Below are positions 1,867-19,139 of a stretch of DNA of 64,000 nt, piece after piece. Positions within the stretch are counted from its first letter, which is position 1, and each line of letters begins with the position of its first letter. The translations under genes and the position numbers were made by a program. The stretch comes from Candidatus Magasanikiibacteriota bacterium (GTDB lineage: Bacteria > Patescibacteriota > Patescibacteriia > Magasanikbacterales > GWA2-37-8), in assembly GCA_041666745.1 (NCBI GenBank), contig JBAYGI010000003.1:76782-140781 (forward strand). Direction: 5' to 3'. Below the pieces are notes generated by a model. It was given only the letters and a program-made list of their open reading frames with translations, made no database searches and had not been told where the DNA came from.

Positions 1867-1898
1867 ACTGAATTTTTATTAATTTATTCAACATATTA

Positions 1899-2846: not shown

Positions 2847-2858
2847 AAATTATTAACA

Positions 2859-3746: not shown

Positions 3747-4381
3747 ACCAAAATATCTAATATTTCTTGAGGATTATCAACAACATACTCCGGCTCAGCA
3801 GCATTCAACTTAATTTTATCATGAAACCCCCAAGTAACTGCCAACATTTTCACACCAACACACTTACCATCAATAATATCACCCACGGTATCAGTAATAA
3901 AATAGCAATCAGAAGGTTGGAGTTTTAAACTTTCAACCAAAGACTCAACAACACCAGCCTTACCGTTTTTGTTAATTCCTAAAATTTCAAAGAATGATGA
4001 ACGTAAGCCATTCATTTCTAATATTTTTTCAATTTGAATTTTGGGAGCACTCGAAACTATAGCCATATGATCATAACCCGCTAATTGTATTTTTTTTACC
4101 ATTTCCTCCGCAAAATCATATAACTTGGTTCGCGAATAGTAATTATCGAAAACAGAATATTTTAGCACTTTGAATTCTTCTAATTTTCTCGGCTCTAAAG
4201 CCAAGAGCTTTTCCAAATTACCATGAAAATTTGAATTCAAAAAAAGGTTAGAATATTCTACCGCTGATATTTCCCGATCAAAGTGTGAACAGACAAAAAC
4301 ATGCATTTTATGTAACTCGTCAAAAGAGTTGTTTAACACCCCATCAAAATCAAATATTATAATCTTTTTTCTACTAATCAT
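3743..4381 (-). CDS. HAD-superfamily hydrolase (phosphatase, HAD-IA-like)
   Basis: N-terminal IIIFDFDGVLNNS (DxDG motif I). 212 aa. 4-nt overlap with the downstream gene. Confidence 0.6.
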   Translation of the reverse strand: MISRKKIIIFDFDGVLNNSFDELHKMHVFVCSHFDREISAVEYSNLFLNSNFHGNLEKLLALEPRKLEEFKVLKYSVFDNYYSRTKLYDFAEEMVKKIQLAGYDHMAIVSSAPKIQIEKILEMNGLRSSFFEILGINKNGKAGVVESLVESLKLQPSDCYFITDTVGDIIDGKCVGVKMLAVTWGFHDKIKLNAAEPEYVVDNPQEILDILV

Positions 4382-4382
4382 A

Positions 4383-4949
4383 CTAAAATCTTTTTATAAT
4401 AGCTTTCATAAAAGCTCCAACATCACGCGGATGGCGACAGGTAATAATATTGTCATCTTCCACAACCGGCTGATTCTCATAAATTGCACCACAATTTTTC
4501 AAATCATCCATTATACCTACATAACAAGTAGCGTGCTTATTTTTTAAAATTCCAGCAGAAATCAATACCCATGGGCCATGGCAAAAAGCTGCAATGATTT
4601 TTTTTGATTCATACATTTTGCGCACAAAATCCAAAACTTCCGGTATCTGTCGAACACGATCGGGAGCTTCAAAACCACCTGGTATTAAAACAAGATCGTA
4701 ATTGTCTAGATTTAACTTGGTAGAATCGATTAACTGTCCATAATATCGAATTAACAGTTCTAGAGGAAAATTCAAACGACCATTTACCATTTTTTTATCT
4801 TTTGTAGCGATGTCTATTTTAAACCCTTCTTCATGCAAACGAATAACGGGATAGATTACCTCCTCATCTTCAAAACCTTCAGCTGTAATTATCACGGCTC
4901 TTTTTGTCAGGTTGCTCATATTATTAAAATTCCTAATTAATTTAAACAT
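4383..4949 (-). CDS. DJ-1/PfpI-family protein (class I glutamine-amidotransferase-like / intracellular protease fold)
   Basis: RAVIITAEGFEDEE...LVLIPGGFEAPD...IIAAFCHGPWVLISAGIL, with the conserved nucleophile-elbow Cys in CHGP. Confidence 0.7.
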   Translation of the reverse strand: MFKLIRNFNNMSNLTKRAVIITAEGFEDEEVIYPVIRLHEEGFKIDIATKDKKMVNGRLNFPLELLIRYYGQLIDSTKLNLDNYDLVLIPGGFEAPDRVRQIPEVLDFVRKMYESKKIIAAFCHGPWVLISAGILKNKHATCYVGIMDDLKNCGAIYENQPVVEDDNIITCRHPRDVGAFMKAIIKRF

Positions 4950-6732
4950 TATTCATATTTTTTGAATATTCATCCCTTTTCAAAAACGGAAACATATCTT
5001 CCAAGGGTTTACTATCCATAGTACCATCAGAATTTTTCATGGAATATACTTTTGGAATCAGAGGCTGGAAAGCAGACATATTGATTTCGCAAACAACCGG
5101 CCCCTTACTTTTTAATACTTTATCTATTTTTTTTTCGATACCCTTATGATCTTTTATTCGAGAATATTGAATACCAAAAGCAGCAACTACTTTTCTAAAG
5201 TCTGGGAAACTCACCCCCGAAGAAGGATCGCTCGCTTCTAGGTCGCCGCCAAAAAATGAATTCTGGGTATTTCTGATAGCCAAATAACCTTGGTTGTTTA
5301 ACAAAAATACTTTTATTGGGAGATTGTGATGTTTGATAGTCTGTAGCTCCTGAATATTCATCATGATACTACCGTCACCGGTAATGAGGATGACTCTTTT
5401 TTTGTCATTTGCAAAACAAGCTCCAATCGCAGCTGGCAAATCATAACCCATGGCAGCACAACCAACATTGCTAATCAACCTTTGATTTTTCTTTATTTTA
5501 AAACACTGTAAAGTGGCGGTGAATGATGTACCAACACCAGTCAAAATTATTTCACCTTTTTTCAACAAAGAGGCTAAAACTTCGGTGAAATAATATGAAT
5601 TTACAAAATTCTTTTCATCTTTATACTCTGGTAAAACTACTGGATATTTTTCTTTCCACGCAATACAACGACTAACCCAATCGCTTGAATCTTTCCACTC
5701 ACCATCACTGGTCATGTTTAGTACCTCATTTAAAAAAACCTTGGCATCAATATTAATTGGCAAATCGGGATGAATGGTTTTTTTCGATAATTCCAACTTA
5801 TCAATATCAATAACTATTTTTTTGGATTTTTTGGCAAATTCGTTATAGTTATATCCAATATTCCAAAGATGATGCCGAACTCCAACACTAATTAATAAAT
5901 CACAATTTTGTACGGCAAAATTTCCGGCACGATCGCCAAATACACCTGGCCGCCCAACGCACAAACCATGTTCGCTTGGTATTAAATCATGCGCTGACAT
6001 AGAAGTAACTACCGGAATCTGTAATTTTTCAATAACCTTCATTAAAACATCTTCACCCTTTGCCAACCTAATACCATGACCGATAAATAACAAGGGGCGT
6101 TTTGCTGAATTAATCATTTTTTTAAAATCAGAAATTTTTGGAGACAAACTATTATCAACAAACTTTTCCTCCATGTCCGGTTTAAAACCTAATAATTCGT
6201 CTGTATTTACTATAGCCGATTGAACATCTGACGGTACATCAATGAGTACTGGCCCCGGTCGGCCAGATTTTGCCAAATAAACAGCTTTTTCTAGGTGATA
6301 TCTTATATCTTTTTGATCTAATACAACTACAGCATATTTGGAAATAGTTTTTACCAAATTAGGAGCATCTACCTCTTGAACCCCTAATTGCCTCAAACCA
6401 CTACCCCCGATCATATTGTCCCTTTTGACTTGTCCCGAGATATATAAAACTGGGATAGAATCAAGCCATGCGCCGGCAATACCGGTGATGGTGTTAGTTA
6501 ATCCTGGTCCAACAGTAGCCATACAAACCCCAATATTTTGATTTATTCGAGAATAACTTTCAGCGGCCATAGCTGACGCTTGTTCATGGTGATTGCAAAC
6601 ATATTTTAATTTATTATTTTTGGCTATCGAATCAATCATTTGCACGTTGCAACCACCAGAAATCAAAAAGACGTGCTTTACACCAAGTGTTGAAATAAAT
6701 TTTGCTATATAATCGGATACTTTAATTTTCAT
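4942..6732 (-). CDS. Thiamine-diphosphate-dependent enzyme, acetolactate-synthase large-subunit-like (YerE-like candidate branched-chain-sugar synthase), paralog 1
   Basis: 596 aa. The N-terminus reads SDYIAKFISTLGVKHVFLISGG...CNHHEQASAMAAESYSRI...GVCMATVGPGLTNTITGIAGAWLDSIPVLYISGQ, the ThDP pyrimidine-binding domain. The C-terminal ThDP-binding region reads GDGSIMMNIQELQT. Confidence 0.75.
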   Translation of the reverse strand: MKIKVSDYIAKFISTLGVKHVFLISGGCNVQMIDSIAKNNKLKYVCNHHEQASAMAAESYSRINQNIGVCMATVGPGLTNTITGIAGAWLDSIPVLYISGQVKRDNMIGGSGLRQLGVQEVDAPNLVKTISKYAVVVLDQKDIRYHLEKAVYLAKSGRPGPVLIDVPSDVQSAIVNTDELLGFKPDMEEKFVDNSLSPKISDFKKMINSAKRPLLFIGHGIRLAKGEDVLMKVIEKLQIPVVTSMSAHDLIPSEHGLCVGRPGVFGDRAGNFAVQNCDLLISVGVRHHLWNIGYNYNEFAKKSKKIVIDIDKLELSKKTIHPDLPINIDAKVFLNEVLNMTSDGEWKDSSDWVSRCIAWKEKYPVVLPEYKDEKNFVNSYYFTEVLASLLKKGEIILTGVGTSFTATLQCFKIKKNQRLISNVGCAAMGYDLPAAIGACFANDKKRVILITGDGSIMMNIQELQTIKHHNLPIKVFLLNNQGYLAIRNTQNSFFGGDLEASDPSSGVSFPDFRKVVAAFGIQYSRIKDHKGIEKKIDKVLKSKGPVVCEINMSAFQPLIPKVYSMKNSDGTMDSKPLEDMFPFLKRDEYSKNMNNV

Positions 6733-6735
6733 AGA

Positions 6736-7476
6736 TTATCGAATTAGTAGAAATCGAATTGAATTTTGGGACAAACAATCTTGTTCCAACTTACTACCAA
6801 CATGCAGTACTTCACCTAATAAAGAATAATTATTATCATCGTGCGCAATCGGACAAATTATATCACTCGGATGCAAAATAGTACAGGCGAGATCGGTGGT
6901 ACTTATCAAAGACATGATTCTATTTTTAAAACTTTTTTCGATATCAGTTTTGGCAAAGGCGTGATACTCAAAACCACTAAGATCTCTAGTTGTTTCTGAA
7001 ACACCCTCATAACCTTTATTTTCTCTCCCATAAGCATCCCTCAGACGTATAAGATCACCTTTGTTGGGTGGATTTTCTATTTCAATCACATATGCACCAC
7101 CATTGGATATGGCCAAGGTAGAATGAAAAACTCCATTATCTATCATAATAGCCTCTTTTTCTGACAACAAAAATGTGTCGGTGAGGGACGAAGTTTCAAT
7201 TTTCCCATGCAGATTTATCAATGATGTTTTCTTGTTGGGGTGACAATGCATAGAAGTCTTCATACCATTTTTTATATACAAAAACCAAATTGCCACATGT
7301 TTATTTTCAAAAAGCAAATATTCGTAACCCCATGGTTTGCGCACTACCAGCCCATTATAATCGGGATTATCAGAGAATATCGGTACAGACTTTTGCAAGG
7401 ATAGATTAGCCAAGTCAAATTGTGAACGAAAGATTTTGTTAATCATACAAGCCAAGGAGCGCAATTTTTGTCGCAA
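6736..7476 (-). CDS. Cupin-domain protein (sugar isomerase/epimerase-like bicupin)
   Basis: VVRKPWGYEYLLFENKHVAIWFLYIKNG...MHCHPNKKTS matches the cupin motifs seen in mannose-6-P-isomerase-type proteins. 34-nt overlap with the upstream rfbF paralog. Confidence 0.45.
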   Translation of the reverse strand: MRQKLRSLACMINKIFRSQFDLANLSLQKSVPIFSDNPDYNGLVVRKPWGYEYLLFENKHVAIWFLYIKNGMKTSMHCHPNKKTSLINLHGKIETSSLTDTFLLSEKEAIMIDNGVFHSTLAISNGGAYVIEIENPPNKGDLIRLRDAYGRENKGYEGVSETTRDLSGFEYHAFAKTDIEKSFKNRIMSLISTTDLACTILHPSDIICPIAHDDNNYSLLGEVLHVGSKLEQDCLSQNSIRFLLIR

Positions 7477-8231
7477 AGATCATTTAAGAATTTATACTCT
7501 CTGTCATTGTCCAAACACTGCCAGAAACCACTATGATGGTAAATTTTTAATTGGCCAGTGGTAGATAATTTTTCAAAAACACTATTATTGTGCTCAATTG
7601 AACATTCGTCAAAAGTAGTTAAATAATTAAAGATACTTTGTCGTAGAACTATAAAACCACCACTAACAACACCAGCCAAGCTATTTAATTTGGAAACCGG
7701 ACTATAAAATATTGATGTGTCGTTTTTTAGGACAAACTCACCATAGCGAAAGGGAGGCAAAACTCCAGTGACAGTGACAGAAAGATTGTGATTCTTGTGA
7801 AAATCTAGAAGTTTATTCAAATCTAAATCTGACAAACAATCAGCATAAGTGGCAAAAAAATCACCTTCATCTAAATATTTTTTACAACGGTACAGACGAG
7901 CACCCGTACCCGCCGATTCACCCGTATCAACGAAAGTTATTTTCCAATCATTTTCTTGGTTGGATGTTAGATGTTCTACCTCCTGATTAGAATTTTTTAA
8001 ATCCAAAACAACATCATTAGTATTGCGATTGTAATTAAAAAAATAATCTCTAATCGACTCTCCCCCACTACCCAAAGCGAGCACAAAATCTTTGTGACCA
8101 TATTTGGCAAAAATTTTCATTACATGCCACAATATTGGTTTACCGGCAATTTTAATCATAGCTTTTGGCACAAAGCTATTCATATTTTTTAAGCGCATCC
8201 CTTGTCCACCACAGAATATTACGGTTTTCAT
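7443..8231 (-). CDS. Glucose-1-phosphate cytidylyltransferase-like nucleotidyltransferase (RfbF/DdhA paralog 1)
   Basis: MKTVIFCGGQGMRLKNMNSFVPKAMIKIAGKPILWHVMKIFAKYGHKDFVLALG, the NTP-transferase signature shared with RfbF. 262 aa. Confidence 0.7.
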   Translation of the reverse strand: MKTVIFCGGQGMRLKNMNSFVPKAMIKIAGKPILWHVMKIFAKYGHKDFVLALGSGGESIRDYFFNYNRNTNDVVLDLKNSNQEVEHLTSNQENDWKITFVDTGESAGTGARLYRCKKYLDEGDFFATYADCLSDLDLNKLLDFHKNHNLSVTVTGVLPPFRYGEFVLKNDTSIFYSPVSKLNSLAGVVSGGFIVLRQSIFNYLTTFDECSIEHNNSVFEKLSTTGQLKIYHHSGFWQCLDNDREYKFLNDLCDKNCAPWLV

Positions 8232-8237
8232 ATATAT

Positions 8238-10037
8238 CTAAGATAATATTTGTTTAATTTCTTTCATTTCTTTTTCTGACAAGAAGGGGTACATGTCATC
8301 AATTGAAGTAGAAACAAGCTTGCCGTCTGGCAATTTTTTCGAAGACACTGTGGGGATAATCAAATGATTTGTTTGACAAATAATTTCGCAAATTTCCGGT
8401 CCGGTAGAATCTAAAACTTTTTTAAGTTTATTATTTATATTAATACTATTGCTAATTCTAGTAAATTTTATGCCATAGGCACCAGCAATCTTCTTTGTTG
8501 AAGGAAAACTTACTCCACTGGATTCGCTTTCTCCAATTAATCTTTTTTCTAAAAATAGAGACTGGGTATTCCGAATTGAAAGATAACCGTTGTTGTTTAA
8601 TACAAAAATTTTTATTGGCAATTTATTATAAACGATTGTTTGTAATTCATGGATATTTGTTTGAAACGAGCCGTCACCAACTATACAAATTACTCTGTTT
8701 TTTTTATTAGCCAGACAAGCACCAGTACTCGCGGGCAGTGCAAAACCCATTGATCCGCTAGAACTTGGTAATATCAAACGCTGACCTTTCTTAATTTTTA
8801 TTGCTTGTCTAACTACGTAAAAGGCGGAGCCGGCATCGGTCGTTATAATATCTTTGTTATTCATAACGTCAGAAATTTTATCAACAAAGTGATGAATATT
8901 CAAAGGAGTTTGTTTGGCATATTCTGGCAAACAAACCGGATATGATTCACGTAAATTACGACAAATATTTGACCAATTTGATTTGAAGCTAAATGTTAAA
9001 TTGTTTAGCCGTTCCGATAATTTATCAAGAAACACTTTGGCATCAGAGATAACCAGAAGATCTATCTTGATAGTTTTTTTCTTGTGTTCAGTACCATCTA
9101 TGTCCACCACAATCTTTTTTGCATCAGGCGCAAATTTTTCATATTCATAACCGATCAGAGGAACACTTAAACGTGAACCAATACTTATAATAAGATCGGA
9201 ATTTTGAATTGTCATATTAGCAGCCCTTTCCCCTTTCGTACCAATTCGACCAACAAAAAGTGGGTGAGAATCATGTATTATATCTACCCCCATAATGCCA
9301 GAAACAACTGGAATGTTAAGCTTCGCTATTAAACTATTAAATTCATCTACGGCACCAGCTATGCGAATACCATTACCCGCTACTATTACCGGTTTGCGAG
9401 CTTTTTTGAGTAATTTTATAATTTTTTCTATTTTTTTATCTAATTCAGTGTCGTGGTCACTTATTGATTTAACATCGGGATGAAAACCTTTTAATTCTTC
9501 AACATTAATGAATGACCCTTGAATGTCTACTGGTATATCAAGCCAGACAGGACCCGGTCTTCCATTTTTAGCGAGATAAATCGCCTTTTCTAGATGATAC
9601 CTAATTCCTTTAGGATCATCCACTACAACCGCATACTTAGTCATACTCTTAACTACCGGTAATATATCAACGGCTAGAGCACCAAACTGTCTCAAACCGG
9701 GAATGTGTGCTTCGTGGACAGTTTCCTTTTTTTTGCATTGCCCAGAAATAATTAGACAGGGAGTAGAGTCTTGCCAAGCACACATCAAACCCGTAATGGT
9801 ATTGGTGCCACCTGGGCCAGAAGTTACCATTGCTACACCAATTTTGCCTGTTATCCGGGCATAGCTATCTGCAGCCATTACTGATGCCTGCTCATGATGA
9901 TTACATGTGAATTTTATTTTTTTATGACAAGCCACAGCATCATTTAGATACATCGCACCACCACCAGTAACTAAAAATATATGACCAACGCCTAAATCAT
10001 ATAAAGTAGAAACAATGTAATCACTTACTCTTATCAT
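8238..10037 (-). CDS. Thiamine-diphosphate-dependent enzyme, acetolactate-synthase large-subunit-like, paralog 2
   Basis: 599 aa and collinear with the 4942-6732 paralog: SDYIVSTLYDLGVGHIFLVTGG...CNHHEQASVMAADSYARI...GPGGTNTITGLMCAWQDSTPCLIISGQ...GDGSFQTNIHELQT. Confidence 0.75.
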   Translation of the reverse strand: MIRVSDYIVSTLYDLGVGHIFLVTGGGAMYLNDAVACHKKIKFTCNHHEQASVMAADSYARITGKIGVAMVTSGPGGTNTITGLMCAWQDSTPCLIISGQCKKKETVHEAHIPGLRQFGALAVDILPVVKSMTKYAVVVDDPKGIRYHLEKAIYLAKNGRPGPVWLDIPVDIQGSFINVEELKGFHPDVKSISDHDTELDKKIEKIIKLLKKARKPVIVAGNGIRIAGAVDEFNSLIAKLNIPVVSGIMGVDIIHDSHPLFVGRIGTKGERAANMTIQNSDLIISIGSRLSVPLIGYEYEKFAPDAKKIVVDIDGTEHKKKTIKIDLLVISDAKVFLDKLSERLNNLTFSFKSNWSNICRNLRESYPVCLPEYAKQTPLNIHHFVDKISDVMNNKDIITTDAGSAFYVVRQAIKIKKGQRLILPSSSGSMGFALPASTGACLANKKNRVICIVGDGSFQTNIHELQTIVYNKLPIKIFVLNNNGYLSIRNTQSLFLEKRLIGESESSGVSFPSTKKIAGAYGIKFTRISNSININNKLKKVLDSTGPEICEIICQTNHLIIPTVSSKKLPDGKLVSTSIDDMYPFLSEKEMKEIKQILS

Positions 10038-10040
10038 ATA

Positions 10041-10790
10041 TTAAACTAATTTTTTTATTTTTAAAAACTCATCAAATATAACACCTGTGTCTACTTTATA
10101 ACACAAAAACTGAACACCAATATTTTTATAGAATTCTAACTCGCTATCCGAATGAAACATGCAACCAACACTCTTTCCTGTGGCACGAATAATTTTTACC
10201 ATATTTTCTAGTTCGTTCAAAACTTTTTTATTACTAGTATCACCACTAACGCCGAGAGCAACGGAAAGGTCATAAGCACCAATATACACCATGTCGATAT
10301 TATCATCGCTAATAATTTCTTTTAACATCTCAATCCCGTCTTTATCTTCAATCATGATGGCTGTTAGCAGCTCATCATTTTGCATATTTAGGTCAAATGG
10401 ACGTGCACCATAACCGCCGGCACGAATATAAGGATTAAAACTCCGATTGCCAATTGGAGCGAATTTTGCACAGTGAACAACTTTTTTTCTTTCCGCCACA
10501 GAACTGATATGCGGTACCAATATTCCAGAAGAACCAATTTCCAACGCTCTTAAAATATCTGATTCATCATTCCTAGAAACACGTATCAAAGGGCAACATC
10601 CTTCTACTTGAGCAGCCATCACCATTTGACCGGCTCGCTCAAAACTCATAGACCCGTGTTCCATATCGATTATTACAAAATCTAAACCGGCTTTAGAAAT
10701 AACATTCACAACTTCTGGTGACGGTAGTTCACACCATGTTCCTAAAATATTTTTGCCCTGAGCTAATTTTTCTTTTAAATTTTGGCGCAT
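10041..10790 (-). CDS. HpcH/HpaI-family class II (pyruvate) aldolase
   Basis: 249 aa with a TIM-barrel aldolase pattern: FVIIDMEHGSMSFERAGQMVMAAQVEGCCPLIRV...IMIEDKDGIEMLKEI...VYIGAYDLSVALG. Confidence 0.65.
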   Translation of the reverse strand: MRQNLKEKLAQGKNILGTWCELPSPEVVNVISKAGLDFVIIDMEHGSMSFERAGQMVMAAQVEGCCPLIRVSRNDESDILRALEIGSSGILVPHISSVAERKKVVHCAKFAPIGNRSFNPYIRAGGYGARPFDLNMQNDELLTAIMIEDKDGIEMLKEIISDDNIDMVYIGAYDLSVALGVSGDTSNKKVLNELENMVKIIRATGKSVGCMFHSDSELEFYKNIGVQFLCYKVDTGVIFDEFLKIKKLV

Positions 10791-10801
10791 AAAAATATGT
10801 T

Positions 10802-11812
10802 TTAATTATTTTTTGTTTTTGAGAGTTGTAAAGCCACTTCAATCACCATATCCTCTTGCCCACCAACAATATTGCGTTTACCTAATTCAGTATAAATGTC
10901 TCTGACGTCAACGTTGTATTTTTCAGCGGCACGTTTAATGGGTAAAGCGTAGAGAGAAAACACCCCTGTCAATCCACCCATCAGGCCTATCATGTCAATC
11001 TCTTGTGGTTTTTTCATAATCTTGGCGACTACTTGCTCGCTAACATCCATCATTTTATATAGATCCAAACCACTTTCAATATTCATTTTTTTTAATAAAG
11101 TGCCTAAAGCTTCCAATTGGCAATTGCCGGAGCTGGCGCCGAAACCTCTGATAGTACCATCAATAATAGTTGCACCATTTTGCAGAGCAATTAGAGAATT
11201 AGCCACGGCCATACCAAAATTATTGTGAGCATGAAAACCAACGGGAATATCCAAATGTTTTACTAAATGACTTATTGTCTCGGTTACTAATGATGGAGTT
11301 GAAGAACCGGCTGAATCCATAATAATTATACCACGAGCGCCGTAAGATTGCATTTTAACAGCTTCTTCAACTAAACGTTCTTTGGTGGTCATATGATACA
11401 TCATCAAAATTCCGTAAACTTCTTTGTTATTATCGTGCAAATATTGAATATATTGTTGAGTAGTATCAGCCTCAGTACAATGGGAACCGACACAAAATAC
11501 ATCTACCCCAATATCTATAGCTGGCTGCAAATCGTCTTTGATCGTTGCAAACCCAGGAATTAAGAACACTCCTAGTCGGGTTTTTTTTAAGGCTTTTCTC
11601 GCGACCGCTAACATTTCAGCGTCTTTGATGACAGCAAAACCCACCTGATGAGAAGATGCCCCCAAACCGTTGCCGTGGCCGACAATGACAGTATAAATTC
11701 CAGAACCATCAATTTTTTCGCAATACTCGCGAATTTGGTCAGCAGTAATTTGGTGAGAAACTGCGTGAGATCCATCTCGAAGCGTGGAGTCAAAAAATTT
11801 CAGATTATTCAT
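10802..11812 (-). CDS. 4-hydroxy-2-oxovalerate aldolase-like (DmpG/MhpE/BphI family, DRE-TIM metallolyase)
   Basis: FFDSTLRDGSHAVSHQITADQIREYCEKIDGSGIYTVIVGHGNGLGASS is the N-terminal DmpG signature. The start is reassigned to the internal ATG at 11812-11810 (MNNLKFFDSTLRDG), 2 nt after the stop of the DmpF-like gene. The 19-codon extension to 11869 is composition-atypical. Confidence 0.75.
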   Translation of the reverse strand: MNNLKFFDSTLRDGSHAVSHQITADQIREYCEKIDGSGIYTVIVGHGNGLGASSHQVGFAVIKDAEMLAVARKALKKTRLGVFLIPGFATIKDDLQPAIDIGVDVFCVGSHCTEADTTQQYIQYLHDNNKEVYGILMMYHMTTKERLVEEAVKMQSYGARGIIIMDSAGSSTPSLVTETISHLVKHLDIPVGFHAHNNFGMAVANSLIALQNGATIIDGTIRGFGASSGNCQLEALGTLLKKMNIESGLDLYKMMDVSEQVVAKIMKKPQEIDMIGLMGGLTGVFSLYALPIKRAAEKYNVDVRDIYTELGKRNIVGGQEDMVIEVALQLSKTKNN

Positions 11813-11814
11813 AT

Positions 11815-12708
11815 TTATTTGATTAGTTTGTAATACGCATATTCCTCGGCCACATGCACAGCAGCACAAGTGATAATATCTAAATTACCAGCGTAGGGTG
11901 GTAAAAAATCGCCACTACCAATTACCTGTACCATCATCACTACTCGCCCTTTATCCAATACTGGACCTAAAGTAAGTTTGTAACCAGGAATATATTTTTT
12001 TATTTCTTCAATTTTAGATTCAATTTTTTCTTTTAATAAATCAATATTTAAATTAGGTATAGTGGCATAAATAGTATTGTGCATATTAACTGGCGGTTCA
12101 GCGGGATTAAATACTAAAATTACTTTTGCCTTTTTAACTCCAGAAAATTCTTCTAGCGCGTTTTTGGTAGTCTGCATATACTCTTCAATATTGGCACGCG
12201 TACCTGCCCCCGCCGACTTGGAAGCGATACTACCGGCTACCTCAATATATTCAGTATCAGGATGCGTATCCATAATAACCTTGGCTAATGGTATGCAGGC
12301 TTGTCCTCCACAAGTGACCATATTTACATTATCAACAGCGAAAGCAATGTCTGGATTAATTGCTGGTACACACATTTGACCAATTCTCGAAGGTGTCAAA
12401 TCAATCACAAACTTACCAAGCTTCTTTAAAATTGGAGCATGCTCAAGGTGATTTTTGGCAGAGGTAGCGTCAAAAACAATCTCACAAGATTCTGGATTGT
12501 CAATAATAGCTTGAATTGAATTAGTAGAAGTGGGCACCCCCATCTCTTTTGCTCTTTTCAAACCTTGCGAATCAGCACTACGCCCAGTAAACAAACCACA
12601 AGTTAAATACTTTGATTTTTGTACTTTTAACAATAAATCACTGCCAATATTGCCTGTTCCAATAATTGCTACTTTAATTTTATTCATAAAATCCAGCTTA
12701 TTTTTCAA
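11815..12708 (-). CDS. Acetaldehyde dehydrogenase (acetylating), DmpF/MhpF family
   Basis: KVAIIGTGNIGSDLLLKVQKSKYLTCGLFTGRSADSQGLKRAKEMGVPTS closely follows the DmpF N-terminus. It is immediately upstream of, and coupled to, the DmpG-like gene (the classic dmpFG arrangement). 297 aa. Confidence 0.8.
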   Translation of the reverse strand: MKNKLDFMNKIKVAIIGTGNIGSDLLLKVQKSKYLTCGLFTGRSADSQGLKRAKEMGVPTSTNSIQAIIDNPESCEIVFDATSAKNHLEHAPILKKLGKFVIDLTPSRIGQMCVPAINPDIAFAVDNVNMVTCGGQACIPLAKVIMDTHPDTEYIEVAGSIASKSAGAGTRANIEEYMQTTKNALEEFSGVKKAKVILVFNPAEPPVNMHNTIYATIPNLNIDLLKEKIESKIEEIKKYIPGYKLTLGPVLDKGRVVMMVQVIGSGDFLPPYAGNLDIITCAAVHVAEEYAYYKLIK

Positions 12709-13774
12709 ATAAGAAAGAATTAATTTGATTATTTGTCAAATCATTCATATTTTTTGAACCGCTATAAAATTGACGATACCAATCAAACGTTAACTCTAAA
12801 CAATTTTTTAAATTTAACTGTGGTTTCCAACCCAATTCATTCGTCGCTTTTTTAATATCTAACTTGAGAATATTAGCTTCATGTTTGGCGTTGTCAGGAA
12901 CTATTTTGTATTTTCCTCGTTTCAAAATTGAAATACCGGAACGAACCAAATCTTCGACACATACAAAACCCTCTTCATACGGACCAAAATTCCAAGCGCC
13001 AGATAAGTTTTTTTTACCATTATACAAATGTTCTGCCAATAATAAATAGCCTCGAAGTGGTTCTAAAACATGTTGCCACGGTCTGATTGATTTTGGGTTT
13101 CTAATAATAACATCTTCCTGACGCTCAAAAATTGCTCGCATCATATCCGGAATCAAACGGTCTTTTGCCCAATCCCCACCTCCAATTACATTGCCAGCCC
13201 GAGCAATACCAACCAAAGTATGGTGTTTGGTACCAAAGTCAGGTGGACTAAAGAAAGAACGGATATATGAGTAGGAAACAATATCAGCGGCAGCTTTGCT
13301 GGCACTATATGGATCATACCCACCTAAAGAATCAGTTTCGCTATATGGTTCTGGTCGTTCTTTATTTTCATAAACCTTATCAGTAGTAATAATAACAGCT
13401 GATTTAACACCACCAACTTCTTTGATAGCCTGCAAAACATTGGCGGTACCGATGATATTGATATTGTAGGTAGTCAATGGATCATCATAGCTGTCGCGAA
13501 CAAGTGGTTGGGCAGCCAAATGAAATACTATTTCTGGTTTTGTTTTACTTACTATTTCTTTTAATTTTTTATAATCACAAATATCAACAAAATAGTTATT
13601 TTTTATTTGGTTGGACAATTCCAAAGTATCAAATAAATTGGGAATAGTATTGGGAGGAAGCGAAATGCCAGTAACTTCAGCACCCCAATTACATAAAATT
13701 TTAGTCAACCAAGCGCCTTTAAAACCAGAGTGACCAGTAATCAAAACTTTTTTGTGGTTATAAAAATTTATCAT
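12698..13774 (-). CDS. rfbG: CDP-glucose 4,6-dehydratase
   Basis: KKVLITGHSGFKGAWLTKILCNWGAEVTGISL...IVFHLAAQPLVRDSY...SYSASKAAADIVSY is the extended-SDR dehydratase pattern typical of RfbG/DdhB. 358 aa. Confidence 0.8.
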   Translation of the reverse strand: MINFYNHKKVLITGHSGFKGAWLTKILCNWGAEVTGISLPPNTIPNLFDTLELSNQIKNNYFVDICDYKKLKEIVSKTKPEIVFHLAAQPLVRDSYDDPLTTYNINIIGTANVLQAIKEVGGVKSAVIITTDKVYENKERPEPYSETDSLGGYDPYSASKAAADIVSYSYIRSFFSPPDFGTKHHTLVGIARAGNVIGGGDWAKDRLIPDMMRAIFERQEDVIIRNPKSIRPWQHVLEPLRGYLLLAEHLYNGKKNLSGAWNFGPYEEGFVCVEDLVRSGISILKRGKYKIVPDNAKHEANILKLDIKKATNELGWKPQLNLKNCLELTFDWYRQFYSGSKNMNDLTNNQINSFLFEK

Positions 13775-13779
13775 AATGA

Positions 13780-14460
13780 TTATCTTTTTTTCTGAATATA
13801 GTAGATGTTGCTACCATCGTACAAAACCTTTTTATATCCATACTTTGACAAAAATTGGTCATAGTTCTTTCCCTCAATACACAAGACCGAAGCACCGTAT
13901 TTAGACCAATTGTTGCCACTTAAAATTTCATTTTCAAATCCTTCCACATCCATGTTAATAAAATCTATATGGGTCAAATTATTGTCACTAAAAATCTTAC
14001 TCAGAGTTGAAACTTTAATTTTTTTAGATTGTAGATCATATTTTCTTTCATTGTATACTTTTTTAGAAAATGTGAAACCAGTACTGTCGATGAGAGTGGC
14101 GTTTGGTTTGTAATAATAATCCAACTCACCTTCTTGGCCAGCTAATCCAATATTTAAATTTATATCACGTGGTCTATCTTTTAAAAATAATAGATAATTA
14201 TCAGAATTGGGTTCTATGTTTATACCGCTCCACCCTCTTTCATAAAACTTCTTCGTTACACTTATCTTGTGTGGATTGTTGGCTCCAATATCAATATAAG
14301 ATCCAGTATCTTTAAAACCGGTAAGAATATCAATTATTTGATCTTCCTTATTTTGGGCATAAGTAATCTTATCTTTAGAGAATAAACTCACAAATAAAAA
14401 AGCAATACGGTGATAAAATTGATATAAAATCTTGTTTAAAATATTTTTAAAGTATTTCAT
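13780..14460 (-). CDS. FkbM-family SAM-dependent methyltransferase (sugar O-methyltransferase candidate)
   Basis: YIDIGANNPHKISVTKKFYERGWSGINIEPNSDNY matches the FkbM domain signature. The start is taken at the internal ATG 14460 (MKYFKNIL), 2 nt after the rfbF stop. The longer 14499 start would overlap rfbF by 37 nt. Confidence 0.65.
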   Translation of the reverse strand: MKYFKNILNKILYQFYHRIAFLFVSLFSKDKITYAQNKEDQIIDILTGFKDTGSYIDIGANNPHKISVTKKFYERGWSGINIEPNSDNYLLFLKDRPRDINLNIGLAGQEGELDYYYKPNATLIDSTGFTFSKKVYNERKYDLQSKKIKVSTLSKIFSDNNLTHIDFINMDVEGFENEILSGNNWSKYGASVLCIEGKNYDQFLSKYGYKKVLYDGSNIYYIQKKR

Positions 14461-14462
14461 AA

Positions 14463-15248
14463 TTATTTCCAAATTTTCCAAAAAGGATCTTTGTTCCACA
14501 TTTCATTTAAATCATCTGCCTCTTTTGCTGTATCCATACATTTCCAATTTCCTGAATGTTTGTATACTGATAGTTGTAATTGTTGAGACAAAGGAGAGAA
14601 AACAGATTCAATCATACTGTTTGGCGTGATTAAATCCAGTACTTGTTTTTCGAACACCATAAAACCACCATTGATATAATCTTTTGGGCGACAATCTTCA
14701 TTGTCAGTAATTTTATGTTGAAAAAAATCTACTACTTTACTGGACTCATGATGAATATTTAACATACCAAAACGAGTTGAAGGATGGATACCGGTAATAG
14801 TACCAACAGTTCCCTGTCGATTATGAAATTCCACCAACTCTTTAATGTTAATATCACTCACACCATCACCATAGGTAACCATAAAAGGCCCGTCATCTAA
14901 ATATTTTGCCGCCTGTAAAACACGTTCACCTGTCAACGAAGCTTGTCCAGTTTCTGCAAAAGTAATTTTAAAATCATCACATTCATTATTATGAAAGGTT
15001 ACTTCGTTGGTTTTAGTTGATAAAGTAAAATCATTTAATAATCCACGCCAATTCAAAAAATATTCTTTAATCATATTGCCTTTGTATCCGAGCGCTAAAA
15101 CAAATTCATTATAACCATAATGAGAATAAATTTTCATTATATGCCATAGCATTGGTTTACCGCCAATTTCCACCAAAGGCTTCGGTTTGAATTCTGTTTC
15201 CTCTTTCATGCGGGTGCCGGTGCCACCGCAAAGTATTATAGTTTTCAT
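14463..15248 (-). CDS. rfbF: Glucose-1-phosphate cytidylyltransferase
   Basis: MKTIILCGGTGTRMKEETEFKPKPLVEIGGKPMLWHIMKIYSHYGYNEFVLALGYKGNMIKEYF is near-collinear with RfbF/DdhA. 261 aa. Confidence 0.85.
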   Translation of the reverse strand: MKTIILCGGTGTRMKEETEFKPKPLVEIGGKPMLWHIMKIYSHYGYNEFVLALGYKGNMIKEYFLNWRGLLNDFTLSTKTNEVTFHNNECDDFKITFAETGQASLTGERVLQAAKYLDDGPFMVTYGDGVSDINIKELVEFHNRQGTVGTITGIHPSTRFGMLNIHHESSKVVDFFQHKITDNEDCRPKDYINGGFMVFEKQVLDLITPNSMIESVFSPLSQQLQLSVYKHSGNWKCMDTAKEADDLNEMWNKDPFWKIWK

Positions 15249-15285
15249 ATTTTTATGATTATTAATTTTCTAATTTAAATTATTA

Positions 15286-16284
15286 TTAAGCGCTTGCATT
15301 AATATTTTTTCGAGAATCCCTAATTAACTTAATAAAACTGTTTGGTACAAAAAATATTATCACTGCCAACAATAAATAGAAGGGCGAACAATAGAATTCA
15401 TCAATCATCATCTTTAAATCATTCATTTTACAATTGAGGCCGTTGGCCTTGGCTCTTAGTAGCATGAGGATTAATTTTTTTGGAAATGAAGACAATATTT
15501 GATTAACATAATTTATATTATAACCAAAACTCGGTAGTTTTTTAAGTATTCTATTCCAATTGATAAAATAATAAAACTCTGTACCACCCTTAATCCAATC
15601 ACACGATTGCATAGTGGAAACTAACGAAGCGCCATTGTGTTCGAACGGTAAATTGGATTGAGCGATCATTTTTAGTGCAATTTCATAGTATGACCAACCT
15701 ACAAAATATCCTGTTCTATCTACATCTAGCCACATTTGTCTATTAAAAATCATAGACGACAACAAACCAATACAATAATTTTTTGCAAAAAATTCATTGT
15801 GTGCTTTTGGCGCGAAATGTTCGACATTTTCCAGATAATTTCTCTTTTTGTATACAGTCGCCATATCAACAAACTTCTCAGTTTGTACAGTATATAGGGC
15901 GAGAATATTATTTTTCAAATATTTAACTAGATAATCCAAAGCACCGTTAAGGATAAAATCATCGTCGCCAATAATCCAAGCGTACTTGCCGTTTGAATTA
16001 ACAACAGACTCTATATAATTTGCGTCACAACCAAGATTTTCTTTATTTATAAAATATGTAATATTGGAATATTGTTTGATAAACTTTTCAACAACTAATC
16101 TAGTATTATCTGTACTAGCATTATCAGAAACGACAATTTCTATTTCCGATAATAAATCTGGGTTTTTACCAATCTGCGCAAAAATAGTACTCAAACACTG
16201 GTCGAGATTGTTGGCACGGCAATAGGTAGGTATACAGATACTTAATGTTGGTTGATTTGACATAATTTCTTTTACAGTTTTCAT
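15286..16284 (-). CDS. GT2-family glycosyltransferase
   Basis: LSICIPTYCRANNLDQC...EIVVSDNASTDNT...AWIIGDDD motifs. Confidence 0.7.
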   Translation of the reverse strand: MKTVKEIMSNQPTLSICIPTYCRANNLDQCLSTIFAQIGKNPDLLSEIEIVVSDNASTDNTRLVVEKFIKQYSNITYFINKENLGCDANYIESVVNSNGKYAWIIGDDDFILNGALDYLVKYLKNNILALYTVQTEKFVDMATVYKKRNYLENVEHFAPKAHNEFFAKNYCIGLLSSMIFNRQMWLDVDRTGYFVGWSYYEIALKMIAQSNLPFEHNGASLVSTMQSCDWIKGGTEFYYFINWNRILKKLPSFGYNINYVNQILSSFPKKLILMLLRAKANGLNCKMNDLKMMIDEFYCSPFYLLLAVIIFFVPNSFIKLIRDSRKNINASA

Positions 16285-16287
16285 TAA

Positions 16288-17211
16288 CTAACGCCTCAGA
16301 GCCGACTTAATGGTTTTAATAATATTTTCAACTGATAGACCGGCTTGGGAACGCATAAACTCTTGTGACCCAACAACCGAATAATAAAGATCAGGAACTC
16401 CCAAACGTTTAAAACGACCCTTAAAACCCAATTCACATAGCTCTGCACCGACCGTGGTTCCAAATCCACCAATTATATTCCCCTCTTCTAGGGTTATTAT
16501 AAAGTTACTTTGATTAGCTAATTTAAGCAACCGTCCTCTATCAAGAGGTTTGATGGTATTGAAATAAATTAGTCCAATATCAATACCTTCATTAATTAAT
16601 TGTTGAACAGCGATATAAGCACTATTAACAATCGTGCCAATACACAATAACATTACATCATTGCCAGATTTTATAATTGAGCTAACGCCCAACTTAGCAG
16701 GTTCCTCATGTAGCCATGATAACGATGGATCACCACCTTTACTAAGACGAAGATAACACGGTCCAGCTGAGGACACGATCTGCGAAATGAGCTGAGCGGA
16801 TTGAATGGCGTCGGCAGGTACAACTATTCTCATGTTCGGCAATGATTGCATAACTGCTATATCTTCGATAGCATGATGAGTTACTCCAGCAGAACCATAA
16901 GTATACCCAGCACCAACACCAATTATAGTAACATCTAAATTTTGATAACAAACGTCAACTTTAATCTGTTCTAAACATCGCAAGGTTACAAACGGCACAA
17001 TAGAATAAACAAAAACTTTTTTTCCAGACAAGGCTAGCCCTGCCGCCAAGCCTATCATATTTTGTTCAGCAATACCAACATTGATAAACTGTTTGGGAAG
17101 TTCTCTTTGAAAATTTTCTACTACAGAGTAACCTAAATCTCCAATTAGTAAAATAATATTGGGATTCTTTTTAGCCTCCTCAAATATGTTGTTTATGACA
17201 GTGTTTCTCAT
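16288..17211 (-). CDS. Transketolase, C-terminal (pyrimidine-binding plus C-terminal domain) subunit of a split transketolase
   Basis: GDLGYSVVENFQRELPKQFINVGIAEQNMIGLAAGLALSGKKVFVYS. 307 aa. Confidence 0.8.
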   Translation of the reverse strand: MRNTVINNIFEEAKKNPNIILLIGDLGYSVVENFQRELPKQFINVGIAEQNMIGLAAGLALSGKKVFVYSIVPFVTLRCLEQIKVDVCYQNLDVTIIGVGAGYTYGSAGVTHHAIEDIAVMQSLPNMRIVVPADAIQSAQLISQIVSSAGPCYLRLSKGGDPSLSWLHEEPAKLGVSSIIKSGNDVMLLCIGTIVNSAYIAVQQLINEGIDIGLIYFNTIKPLDRGRLLKLANQSNFIITLEEGNIIGGFGTTVGAELCELGFKGRFKRLGVPDLYYSVVGSQEFMRSQAGLSVENIIKTIKSALRR

Positions 17212-18026
17212 ATGCTATCCAATTCTCTAATGGCCATATCCAATTCCAATTGATTAGGGCTCTTATAATGCCATTCTACTTTATTCTCCATAAAGGAGAC
17301 CCCTTTACCCTTAATGGTGTTCGCCAACAAGAGTTTTGGATTTTTGTTTTTTGAACTATTTAAAATCGCAAATGATCTTTCTATTTCTTCAAAATTATGA
17401 CCAGAGACTTCAACTACCTCCCACCCAAAAGCCTGCCAACGTTCCGCCATATTTTCAAAATTCATTATAGTACCTGAAAATCCCATTCCCTGTTGTTTGT
17501 TATAATCAACGATCGCTACTAAATTATTCAATTGATGGTGTTTGGCAAACATGGCCGCCTCCCATACCGAACCTTCGTTACATTCTCCATCTCCCATGAG
17601 ACAATAAAAACGTCGATTATTGTTGTCACCTGCCTTGGCCGCCCAAGCCATGCCAGCGGCCATTGATAAGACATGCCCCAATGAACCAGCTGTATTTTCG
17701 ACACCTGACAAGCAATTTATGGTTACATGATTGGCCAAAACTGTTCCATCTTTACCAAATGTATCTAAAATTTTTGAAGAAACAAAACCGAACTCTGCCA
17801 AAACAGCATACAAAGCAACAGCTGCGTGACCTTTACTAAGCATAAAAATATCGCGATTAGGATCTTGCGGTGCAGTTGCTTTGATATTTAAAATTCTACT
17901 ATATAGAACCACTAACAAATCCACAATACTAAAACAGGAGCCAATGTGCGAAGATTTGCTTCTACTCAGTATTTCTAAAATATTTTTCCTAATAATTTTC
18001 GACCTTTGATGTAAATCATTTTCCAT
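17208..18026 (-). CDS. Transketolase, N-terminal (ThDP-binding) subunit of a split transketolase
   Basis: HIGSCFSIVDLLVVLY...LSKGHAAVALYAVLAEFGF...GDGECNEGSVWEAAMFAKHHQLNNLVAIVDYNKQQ. 4-nt overlap with the C-terminal subunit gene. Confidence 0.8.
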   Translation of the reverse strand: MENDLHQRSKIIRKNILEILSRSKSSHIGSCFSIVDLLVVLYSRILNIKATAPQDPNRDIFMLSKGHAAVALYAVLAEFGFVSSKILDTFGKDGTVLANHVTINCLSGVENTAGSLGHVLSMAAGMAWAAKAGDNNNRRFYCLMGDGECNEGSVWEAAMFAKHHQLNNLVAIVDYNKQQGMGFSGTIMNFENMAERWQAFGWEVVEVSGHNFEEIERSFAILNSSKNKNPKLLLANTIKGKGVSFMENKVEWHYKSPNQLELDMAIRELDSI

Positions 18027-18027
18027 A

Positions 18028-19104
18028 TTAGCTCAAAAAACTTTCAATGGTTCTTTTAAATCCTGTTTTAATATCGAACACCGGTTCCCATCCTAACTGT
18101 TTTATTTTTTCAATCGATGGGCAAGAAATATTAAATTCACTGGCAAGATAATAATCATTCTGTTCCCTGATCTTCACAACAACCTTTAGTTTTTTTTCTG
18201 GATACAACCCAACTATCAAATTAGCTAAGTCTCTAATTGATAAAGCGGCGCGTGGATTGCCTAAATTATAGACTTCGCCTGCCTGTCCCTTTAATAATAC
18301 TGACAAAGCACCCACAACAAAATCAGCCACATAACAAAAAGCCCTAACATTTTTACCGTCACTTTTTAACACTAAATCACGGTTGTCAATTACATCAGAA
18401 ACAAAATCGGCGAAAACGCGCCCATCATCTAACGCAAAACCGGGGCCATAAGTATGAAACGGCCTAATAATATTGACAGGAAGGGCATATTGTTGAAACC
18501 ACGATAAACACAAAGTTTCTCCGGCGCGTTTACCTTCAGCATAACACGAACGAATCTTGGCTGGGTCAATTTTACCCACATCGTTTTCTTTAATCAAACT
18601 TCCACCATCGCCCATTGTTCCATATATTTCCGAGGAGCTAAAAAAAAGAAAATTTTTAATTTTTTTTAAAGCACCCTCTGCTAGTAAATTATATGTACCA
18701 AGCACATTTGGCAAAAAAGTTCCAACCGGATCAGTATAATAATATTTTGGGCTGGCCTGACTAGCGGCATGAATCACATAATCAATATTATCATCGGGTA
18801 AAGATAGTGGTACACAAACATCTTGTACAATTATTTTAAGATCCTCCCTATCCTTATAATGTGCAAACCGCTTAAGTGCTTTATCCTTATTTCTGACCAA
18901 TGCAATAACTTTTAATTTTGAAAATAATTTTTTTTCATTCAAATATAATAGCGCCCCCACTATGTATGACGGTAAAAAACCATTTGCGCCGGAAATTAAT
19001 ATCGTACTACCTGCCAGTTTGTCCCATGGCAAATTAGCATCCGTAATAAATTTTAGGTCTTCCTCAATAATAATATTTCTCATAATTACTAAGAATTCAT
19101 ACAA
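18028..19104 (-). CDS. NAD-dependent epimerase/dehydratase-family SDR (NDP-sugar modifying)
   Basis: ILISGANGFLPSYIVGALLYL Rossmann motif, downstream YAEGKRAGE (YxxxK). 358 aa. Confidence 0.7.
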   Translation of the reverse strand: MYEFLVIMRNIIIEEDLKFITDANLPWDKLAGSTILISGANGFLPSYIVGALLYLNEKKLFSKLKVIALVRNKDKALKRFAHYKDREDLKIIVQDVCVPLSLPDDNIDYVIHAASQASPKYYYTDPVGTFLPNVLGTYNLLAEGALKKIKNFLFFSSSEIYGTMGDGGSLIKENDVGKIDPAKIRSCYAEGKRAGETLCLSWFQQYALPVNIIRPFHTYGPGFALDDGRVFADFVSDVIDNRDLVLKSDGKNVRAFCYVADFVVGALSVLLKGQAGEVYNLGNPRAALSIRDLANLIVGLYPEKKLKVVVKIREQNDYYLASEFNISCPSIEKIKQLGWEPVFDIKTGFKRTIESFLS

Positions 19105-19139
19105 TACTGCGAACAGCTATTCGAAAAAAAATAATATTT

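Follow-up and report, generated by a model that had tools for sequence, protein, structure and literature searches.

The closest described counterpart of the genes treated here is the erwiniose cluster of Pectobacterium atrosepticum SCRI1043, in which the YerE-like thiamine diphosphate (ThDP) enzyme ErwE and the reductase ErwF adjoin the BphI/BphJ-like proteins ErwI and ErwJ (Steitz et al. 2022, PMC9306805; ErwE WP_011093010, ErwJ WP_011093012, ErwI WP_011093013). The donor of ErwE is 4-hydroxy-2-oxopentanoate (HOPA), not pyruvate, and the 4R enantiomer is preferred. In the deduced route ErwJ converts acetyl-CoA to acetaldehyde, ErwI adds pyruvate to give HOPA, ErwE adds the donor to CDP-4-keto-3,6-dideoxyglucose and ErwF reduces the product (PMC9306805). 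A second precedent is caryophyllose of Mycobacterium marinum, which needs both the HpcH/citrate-lyase-family aldolase MMAR_2331 and the adjacent ThDP enzyme MMAR_2332 (PMC9306805). We analysed a stretch of 64,000 nucleotides, here called the window, from contig JBAYGI010000003.1 of a Candidatus Magasanikiibacteriota bacterium, a member of the Candidate Phyla Radiation (CPR). On its minus strand, at positions 10041-12708 and between rfbG and the gene of a ThDP enzyme, are the genes of a DmpF-like dehydrogenase, a DmpG-like aldolase and an HpcH/HpaI-family aldolase. Gene context and residue comparisons make it likely that these three genes are the side-chain-building part of an operon for an acyl-(C-)branched 3,6-dideoxyhexose of a surface glycan in Magasanikbacteria.

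The window is like the erwiniose system in having a BphJ/BphI-like pair in a CDP-3,6-dideoxyhexose cluster beside genes for a YerE-like ThDP enzyme, a reductase and glycosyltransferases, and the pair would work in the same synthetic direction, towards a 4-hydroxy-2-oxo acid donor. It differs in that the HpcH gene lies between the pair and the ThDP gene, in that there are two YerE-like enzymes, ThDP1 and ThDP2, neither of which belongs to the clade that usually follows DmpG (clade A, see below), and in its host, a CPR bacterium as compared to a proteobacterium. The pairing of an HpcH-family aldolase with a neighbouring YerE-like ThDP enzyme is also seen in MMAR_2331/MMAR_2332, and in MygI/MyGE of M. 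gastri, which likewise belong to 3,6-dideoxyhexose clusters, there for glycolipids; the proposed product of MMAR_2331 is a long hydroxylated 2-oxo acid that serves as donor. No DmpFG has been described in those clusters, whereas here HpcH and a ThDP1-type enzyme always occur together with DmpFG. The catabolic pairs DmpG/DmpF, BphI/BphJ, MhpE/MhpF and HsaF/HsaG (1nvm, 4lrs, 4jn6, 8ih7) are 42-46% identical and have the communication domain, the catalytic and metal residues, the Cys nucleophile and the coupled adjacent genes in common with the window pair. Unlike them, the window pair has no hydratase or ring-cleavage genes around it, carries Phe at the positions of BphI Leu87 and Tyr290, and would run in the direction of synthesis. 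The non-catabolic use of both aldolase types was already published in 2022 (PMC9306805), which has overtaken the novelty implied by a first-pass annotation of this DNA. What is new is the CPR host, the wide spread of the cassettes, the Phe/Phe pair as a signature and the block DmpFG-HpcH-YerE(clade C) as an obligate unit. The literature searched yielded nothing relevant on Patescibacteria with this aldolase or on aurantose.

The three genes are tightly packed. Direct reading of the sequence gave gaps of 10 nt from the rfbG stop to the DmpF ATG, 2 nt from the DmpF stop to the DmpG ATG (a TAA-at-ATG junction) and 3 nt from the HpcH stop to the ThDP1 ATG, and the coordinates give 11 nt between DmpG and HpcH. 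All genes from about 1 to 26.9 kb of the window are on the minus strand. In transcription order the operon starts with a Wzy_C-like protein, a helix-turn-helix protein, a Wzx flippase, a short-chain dehydrogenase/reductase (SDR), a split transketolase, a GT2 glycosyltransferase, an RfbF-like protein and an FkbM methyltransferase. It continues with RfbG, DmpF, DmpG, HpcH, ThDP1, a second cytidylyltransferase-like protein, a cupin-like protein and ThDP2, and closes with DJ-1/PfpI, a HAD phosphatase, an SDR, an ArnC/PgfS-like GT2 and a GT87-like membrane transferase. On the source contig the cluster runs on past the window start with a GT87/FkbM fusion, two SDRs and one GT2. No MhpD-like hydratase was detected in the 64-kb window by tblastn with the E. 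coli protein, and no other aromatic-catabolism gene turned up in domain scans of the window proteins. The setting described by the first-pass annotation, a pair between rfbG and a ThDP enzyme with an HpcH aldolase adjoining and no aromatic catabolism genes, was thus borne out.

The same annotation took the pair for a genuine, coupled DmpFG, and the protein models agree with it. The DmpF-like protein scored 368 bits against TIGR03215 (cut-off 282) and 155 bits against the dimerisation domain PF09290, and in alignments to 7z3s, 4lrs_B and 8ih7_B the Cys nucleophile motif TCGGQA and the NAD motif GxGNIG are kept; 1nvm_B was another strong match. The DmpG-like protein reached 360 bits against TIGR03217 (cut-off 286), 139 bits against PF00682 and 80 bits against PF07836, the DmpG communication domain. 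Its residues R12, D13, H16, H194 and H196 correspond to the catalytic and metal-binding R17, D18, H21, H200 and H202 of DmpG, with offsets that agree with the range of the 1nvm alignment, and this RDHHH pattern is present in 49 of 50 sugar-linked DmpG homologues, the exception being truncated at the N-terminal. An identity as 2-isopropylmalate synthase (IPMS) or HMG-CoA lyase was rejected, as the models for IPMS, homocitrate synthase and HMG-CoA lyase gave at most 92 bits, far under their cut-offs.

A genome scan with the DmpG-like protein yielded 41 loci, whose neighbouring open reading frames (ORFs) were compared by local BLAST. Homologous pairs recur in glycan clusters of related genomes, a point the first-pass annotation had raised: all 20 loci at 62-78% DmpG identity have the order CytT - 4,6-dehydratase - (split transketolase) - DmpF - DmpG - ThDP - SDR - GT2 - RfbH. 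These loci belong to CPR, Omnitrophota, Udaeobacter, Firestonebacteria and Clostridium gasigenes DSM 12272 (L028, with DmpF-DmpG-ThDP), and MhpD was absent from every one of them. The remaining 21 loci, at 42-46% identity, all have MhpD-MhpF-MhpE, with MhpD on one or both sides; this catabolic comparison set is mostly Bacillaceae and taxonomically narrow. Five metagenome contexts fetched separately showed the same sugar cassette, and altogether about 50 DmpG relatives from several lineages sit in such cassettes. The DmpG of the window is closest (78%) to CPR type-I DmpGs. In a neighbour-joining (NJ) tree rooted on distant HMGL-like proteins (numpy implementation, 100 bootstrap replicates) the sugar-linked DmpG clade was monophyletic with the full data, and the catabolic sample had a bootstrap of 97/100.

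These comparisons make it extremely unlikely that the pair has a catabolic task, the cleavage of 4-hydroxy-2-oxovalerate from the meta-cleavage of aromatics or steroids, and has ended up in the operon by chance. Both proteins do score above the cut-offs of the catabolic-family equivalogs, and homologues are publicly annotated as 4-hydroxy-2-oxovalerate aldolase. However, neither the window nor the 20 close genome loci contain hydratase, decarboxylase, dioxygenase or hydrolase genes, the 21 catabolic-context loci all fall in the other clade, the short gaps (2-11 nt) show the genes to be part of the glycan operon, and the residues that determine 4S specificity are replaced. The non-canonical, non-catabolic use suggested by the first-pass annotation is supported by the glycan-operon context in the window and the 20 close loci, and none of the signs that would have pointed elsewhere was found: the communication domain is present, the IPMS and HMGL models stay low, and close relatives have no meta-cleavage neighbours.

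On plasmids, tblastn with DmpG gave catabolic dmpG genes of at most 43% identity and one match of 49%, none of them in a glycan cluster. The 49% match is a DmpF/DmpG pair inside a nonribosomal peptide synthetase cluster of Streptomyces parvulus pSPA1 (L136, NZ_CP015867.1 283154-285042). It lies beside genes for a methyltransferase, a fumarylacetoacetate-hydrolase-family protein, HppD and a halogenase, another non-catabolic context. It was also observed that a gene with a metallo-beta-lactamase fold directly precedes DmpF in L009, L010, L022, L068, L081, L084, L098, L104, L109 and L125. Such a gene is found in many cassettes, of Omnitrophota and others, whether or not they contain HpcH, and is absent from the window.

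The substrate pocket of the DmpG-like protein separates it further from the catabolic enzymes. BphI is strictly 4S-specific, with Leu87 and Tyr290 flanking C4 of the substrate and Leu89 restricting the length of the aldehyde; the Y290F variant has lost stereocontrol and L87W/Y290F is 4R-specific (PMC3962088). The window protein has F83 and F285 at the Leu87 and Tyr290 positions. Among the sugar-linked homologues Phe is found in 48 of 50 at the first position and in all 50 at the second, as compared to Leu and Tyr, respectively, in 22 of 22 catabolic proteins. At the Leu89 position all 22 catabolic sequences and 49 of the 50 sugar-linked ones have Ile or Leu, the remaining one having Val. There is also a one-residue insertion after the PGxxTI motif relative to catabolic DmpG, BphI and MhpE. 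Since the Phe/Phe pocket resembles that of the engineered L87W/Y290F variant, a 4R product is predicted for the sugar-linked DmpGs, and this natural pair fits the preference of ErwE. The Ile or Leu kept at the Leu89 position fits acetaldehyde as the substrate.

The pocket also bears on the proposal that the aldolases extend the sugar itself, adding pyruvate onto a sugar-nucleotide aldehyde to form a higher-carbon sugar acid. In other families, nonulosonic and octulosonic acids are built by aldol addition of pyruvate or phosphoenolpyruvate to sugar aldehydes, and aldehydes derived from sugars are substrates of HpcH enzymes such as YfaU (2vws is listed as a 2-keto-3-deoxy sugar aldolase). The CDP-4-keto-6-deoxy and 3,6-dideoxy intermediates, like NDP-4-keto-6-deoxy sugars in general, carry a ketone and no aldehyde. 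A large Ile or Leu at the Leu89 position would restrict DmpG to short aldehydes, DmpF would be left without a role, and ThDP-dependent branching with keto acids made by aldolases is a logic with experimental support (PMC9306805). We consider sugar extension very improbable, and the aldol condensation on a sugar aldehyde that the first-pass annotation had offered as one option is not supported. Its other option, that the pair feeds the ThDP branching step, keeps its link to that step but not its donor: instead of acetaldehyde or pyruvate, the precedent points to the C5 compound HOPA itself, giving a C4 branch.

The likely pathway for the branched sugar would start with the acceptor. RfbG and RfbH are above their equivalog cut-offs and the RfbF-like protein is just under (276 vs 300 bits), and together they would convert glucose-1-phosphate into CDP-4-keto-3,6-dideoxy-D-glucose. 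RfbH is cut by the window start and for that reason is not in the ORF lists; its fragment is 63% identical over 207 amino acids (aa) to RfbH of locus L003 (tblastn), and the full protein on the source contig (L055 11244-12563, 439 aa) scored 664 bits against NF011936, cut-off 423. The RfbF-like gene, CytT1, is kept at the head of related cassettes with 41-83% identity. For the side chain, DmpF would act in the reductive direction, turning acetyl-CoA and NADH into acetaldehyde that is passed to its partner DmpG, which would join it with pyruvate to HOPA, probably the 4R form, as the ErwJ/ErwI precedent and the Phe/Phe pocket suggest. A YerE-like ThDP enzyme would decarboxylate a 4-hydroxy-2-oxo acid and transfer the acyl anion equivalent so formed onto the keto group at C4 of the CDP-sugar; its family is clear from the comparisons below and its substrates are predicted. 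HpcH may make or elaborate a 4-hydroxy-2-oxo acid for the YerE-like enzyme directly downstream, as proposed for MMAR_2331/MMAR_2332. After the ThDP step an SDR would reduce the side-chain ketone, and the polyprenyl-phosphate GT2 and the GT87-like membrane transferase would bring the sugar to its acceptor. The SDR at 2859..3746 is 39-50% identical to the SDR directly after the ThDP gene in related cassettes, and orthologues of the ArnC/PgfS-like GT2 (57-85% identity) are found in most of them; by synteny these are candidates for the reductase and transferase roles.

Both ThDP enzymes are of the YerE type, the subclass of YerE, PpYerE and JanthE. Their best solved relative is 8rph, with which they align over the full length, end to end (residues 2-590) and including the C-terminal tail, and they score far above acetolactate synthases: 413 bits against 8rph vs at most 252 for ThDP1, and 465 vs at most 290 for ThDP2. 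The CDG motif is described for JanthE (PMC12247030), and we have taken 8rph as JanthE on that motif. Unlike 8rph, with CDG, both window enzymes have the ThDP motif GDG(S), and the adjoining aldolases imply donors longer than the pyruvate of YerE. On plasmids, tblastn with ThDP1 found only acetolactate synthases of at most 35% identity. ThDP1 and ThDP2 are 47% identical to each other and 42-45% identical to the ThDP enzymes directly after DmpG elsewhere, which are 57-89% identical among themselves. An NJ tree of 59 YerE-like enzymes showed three clades that track the gene upstream: clade A directly after DmpG (30 loci), clade C, with ThDP1, after HpcH in loci with DmpFG, and clade B, with ThDP2, after HpcH in loci where a fusion protein of about 575 aa stands in place of DmpFG. 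The identities and the separate clades rule out that ThDP1 or ThDP2 is an orthologue of the DmpG-adjacent enzyme.

The HpcH protein was followed in a metagenome scan with an HpcH alignment, which gave 80 loci. Where there was enough downstream sequence, a YerE-like gene came directly after HpcH in 38 of 60. We counted a ThDP1-type locus as informative if the follower was at least 48% identical to ThDP1 and at least 1.1 kb of upstream sequence was available; all 20 such loci have a sugar-clade DmpG upstream, and 18 of them show DmpF as well. The predominant arrangement, with one ThDP gene, is DmpF-DmpG-HpcH-ThDP(C) (L052, L054 and about 16 more), and four (L058, L064, L070 and L074) have the collinear order DmpF-DmpG-ThDP(A)-HpcH-ThDP(C). 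The recurrent DmpF-DmpG-HpcH-ThDP block is a new element. As for the protein itself, it stays below every NCBIfam equivalog cut-off: the best scores were 131 bits for HpaI (cut-off 369), 127 for GarL (407) and 92 for RhmA (441). Residues H45, R70, E148 and D174 are invariant among 33 homologues, and match what we take to be the catalytic and metal set in HpaI numbering, His45, Arg70, Glu149 and Asp175. HpcH appears, from its gene context, to act with DmpFG and not instead of it in this lineage.

How the two aldolases share the work can be seen in two ways, each of which we hold only tentatively. It is conceivable that one side chain is built in series by DmpFG and HpcH, so that the clade-C enzyme installs a branch of at least C6, a length not known from characterised sugars. 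In one version a ThDP enzyme would decarboxylate HOPA to 3-hydroxybutanal, which HpcH would join with a second pyruvate to 4,6-dihydroxy-2-oxoheptanoate; in another, HOPA would be the nucleophile of HpcH towards a second aldehyde. The recurrence of the block with a single ThDP gene, DmpG lying upstream in every informative locus, speaks for a series, as do the four collinear loci, the separation of clade C from clade A, and the 78% identity of the window DmpG to CPR type-I DmpGs, suggesting that DmpG has kept its function and that the module downstream was exchanged. This series has synteny as its basis, however, the single-ThDP loci are without a dedicated decarboxylase, no known sugar has such a branch, and the aldolases could as well feed two different branched sugars or one promiscuous ThDP enzyme.

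The second way, two independent sugars, we would also put forward with reservation. DmpFG would give HOPA to one YerE-like enzyme for an erwiniose-type C4 branch, and HpcH would join pyruvate and a hydroxylated aldehyde to a different, longer 4-hydroxy-2-oxo acid for a caryophyllose-type branch installed by the other YerE-like enzyme. The window does contain two each of aldolase systems, YerE-like enzymes and cytidylyltransferase-like genes, both pairings have precedents (PMC9306805), and DmpG-ThDP(A) is followed by HpcH-ThDP(C) in L058, L064, L070 and L074. Against this, most DmpF-DmpG-HpcH loci have one ThDP gene, neither ThDP enzyme of the window is in clade A, and no source of the second aldehyde was identified. 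A bolder picture, to which we give a low probability, is that the trio of DmpFG, HpcH and clade-C YerE is a two-step aldol assembly line, in which the first aldol product is extended by the second aldolase before ThDP transfer. It would give an undescribed side chain (C6 or longer, or branched) in CPR, Omnitrophota and other uncultured lineages, with the Phe/Phe enzyme as a natural 4R-selective BphI.

Some observations weigh against the branched-sugar pathway as outlined above. The window lacks a clade-A ThDP enzyme, the usual direct partner of DmpG, and HpcH intervenes between DmpG and ThDP1; with no clade-A enzyme HOPA is only a putative final donor, with either YerE-like enzyme as its possible consumer, and together with the co-occurrence of DmpFG and HpcH this means that the simple erwiniose scheme only partly describes the operon. 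No gene for an E3/RfbI reductase was seen within 10 kb on either side, nor in related cassettes. The bootstrap of the sugar-linked DmpG clade was only 52/100 (NJ), and the likeness to ErwI/ErwJ/ErwE and MMAR_2331/2332 is indirect, by published description. Lastly, the best solved relative of HpcH is 4tv5/4tv6 (126 bits, HpaI about 101), labelled by its depositors as a 2-dehydro-3-deoxyglucarate aldolase, which we take to be the S. aureus citrate synthase SbnG and no pyruvate aldolase. This match raises the idea that HpcH is an acyl-CoA-dependent synthase of the SbnG type, forming a citrate-like product from oxaloacetate and acetyl-CoA. The score difference is small, however, the aldolase residues are invariant, and the constant pairing with a YerE-like gene matches MMAR_2331/2332, and a synthase of this kind seems to us highly unlikely.

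In part of the HpcH loci DmpF is missing, and the gene immediately before HpcH and a clade-B YerE-like gene encodes a fusion protein of about 575 aa (L079, L085, L095, L099, L101, L118 and L127), in which a distant HMGL-like barrel, 25-29% identical to DmpG, is joined to a weak MptE-like C-terminal domain. It has Met, Asp and His at the three pocket positions and is found at about 8.2-10.0 kb in loci with the full 10-kb upstream flank, e.g. 8246-9961 in L099. The fusion is also present in L086, where the contig ends ahead of any downstream ThDP gene. It seems to take the place of DmpFG.

The accessory genes of the operon (Table 1) vary between relatives. In L053, L057, L060 and L067, all without DmpFG, a module of CytT2, DJ-1/PfpI and cupin-like genes precedes HpcH and a YerE-like gene (sometimes split), and in the window the same genes flank ThDP2. 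The cupin-like protein is 45-50% identical to the product of the gene preceding HpcH in L053, L057 and L060, and the module may supply the aldehyde of HpcH in these four loci. The split transketolase pair and its adjacent SDR are accessory, since they are absent from the relative L056, which otherwise has the same gene order at 86-90% identity; a split transketolase lies beside DmpF in L003, L004, L014 and L015. Such enzymes have been proposed to add hydroxyacetyl branches to keto sugars, so far only in Streptomycetes (PMC12247030), and those of CPR may be a third type of C-branching enzyme in the operon. The G+C content of the glycan operon is 31-37% (window 1-20000), as compared to 38-43% at 26000-64000. 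Very large ORFs were seen at 51677-62437 (minus, 3586 aa), 23155-26874 (minus, 1239 aa) and 29821-31593 (plus, 590 aa). The last two have no Pfam match; the large ORFs may be surface proteins, and neighbouring genes have TSP3 and Big_5 repeats.

Table 1. Positions of the operon genes in the window and the matches behind their assignment.
Feature	Coordinates	Strand	Length, matches and remarks
DmpF/BphJ/ErwJ-like acylating acetaldehyde dehydrogenase	11815..12687	-	290 aa from ATG; TTG ORF start at 12708; TIGR03215, PF09290
DmpG/BphI/ErwI-like 4-hydroxy-2-oxovalerate aldolase	10802..11812	-	336 aa from ATG; TIGR03217, PF00682, PF07836
HpcH/HpaI-family class II aldolase	10041..10790	-	249 aa; PF03328 82 bits
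YerE-like ThDP carboligase ThDP1, clade C	8238..10037	-	599 aa; 8rph 413 bits
YerE-like ThDP carboligase ThDP2, clade B	4942..6732	-	596 aa; 8rph 465 bits
CDP-glucose 4,6-dehydratase (RfbG)	12698..13774	-	TIGR02622 462 bits, cut-off 278
Glucose-1-phosphate cytidylyltransferase-like (RfbF-like, CytT1)	14463..15248	-	TIGR02623 276 bits, cut-off 300
RfbH N-terminal part (CDP-6-deoxy-4-hexulose 3-dehydrase, E1)	3..623	-	tblastn; gene cut by window start
SDR, candidate YerF/ErwF-like side-chain ketoreductase	2859..3746	-	PF01370; assignment from synteny
GT2 polyprenyl-phosphate glycosyltransferase (ArnC/PgfS-like)	1899..2846	-	NF047588 196 bits, NF007986 135 bits, both sub-cut-off
GT87-like polytopic membrane glycosyltransferase	607..1866	-	PF09594 82 bits
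Second cytidylyltransferase-like protein (CytT2)	7443..8231	-	TIGR02623 236 bits, cut-off 300
Cupin-like protein	6736..7476	-	PF01050 (type II mannose-6-P isomerase C-terminal domain) 21 bits, sub-cut-off, weak
DJ-1/PfpI family protein	4383..4949	-	TIGR01382 144 bits, cut-off 139; PF01965
HAD phosphatase-like protein	3743..4381	-	PF13419
FkbM-family methyltransferase	13780..14499	-	PF05050 69 bits
Split transketolase	16288..18026 (N part 17208-18026, C part 16288-17211)	-	NF004559 model positions 16-280 and 330-624
SDR epimerase/dehydratase-family protein, beside transketolase pair	18028..19104	-	Domain scan
GT2 glycosyltransferase	15286..16284	-	Domain scan
Wzx-type flippase	19140..20600	-	NF041871, PF01943
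Wzy_C / O-antigen-ligase-like membrane protein, C-terminal TPR region	20922..23012	-	PF04932 (precomputed annotation)

Homologues of DmpF and DmpG from uncultured bacteria are routinely named as enzymes of aromatic degradation. As about 50 of them belong to sugar-branching cassettes here, pathway calls made from these two genes alone would be wrong, and Phe at the positions of BphI Leu87 and Tyr290 is a simple sequence marker that separates sugar-linked from catabolic use. The YerE-like clades partnered with different aldolases, and a class II aldolase that would naturally be of the 4R type, might serve as biocatalysts for chiral tertiary alcohols and 4-hydroxy-2-oxo acids. For the organism itself, the operon means that a CPR bacterium devotes more than 20 kb to what is probably a chemically elaborate branched deoxysugar. 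Since the cassette is spread across several phyla, including a cultured Clostridium, long-branched sugars appear to be far more widespread than the few known lipopolysaccharide and lipooligosaccharide structures.

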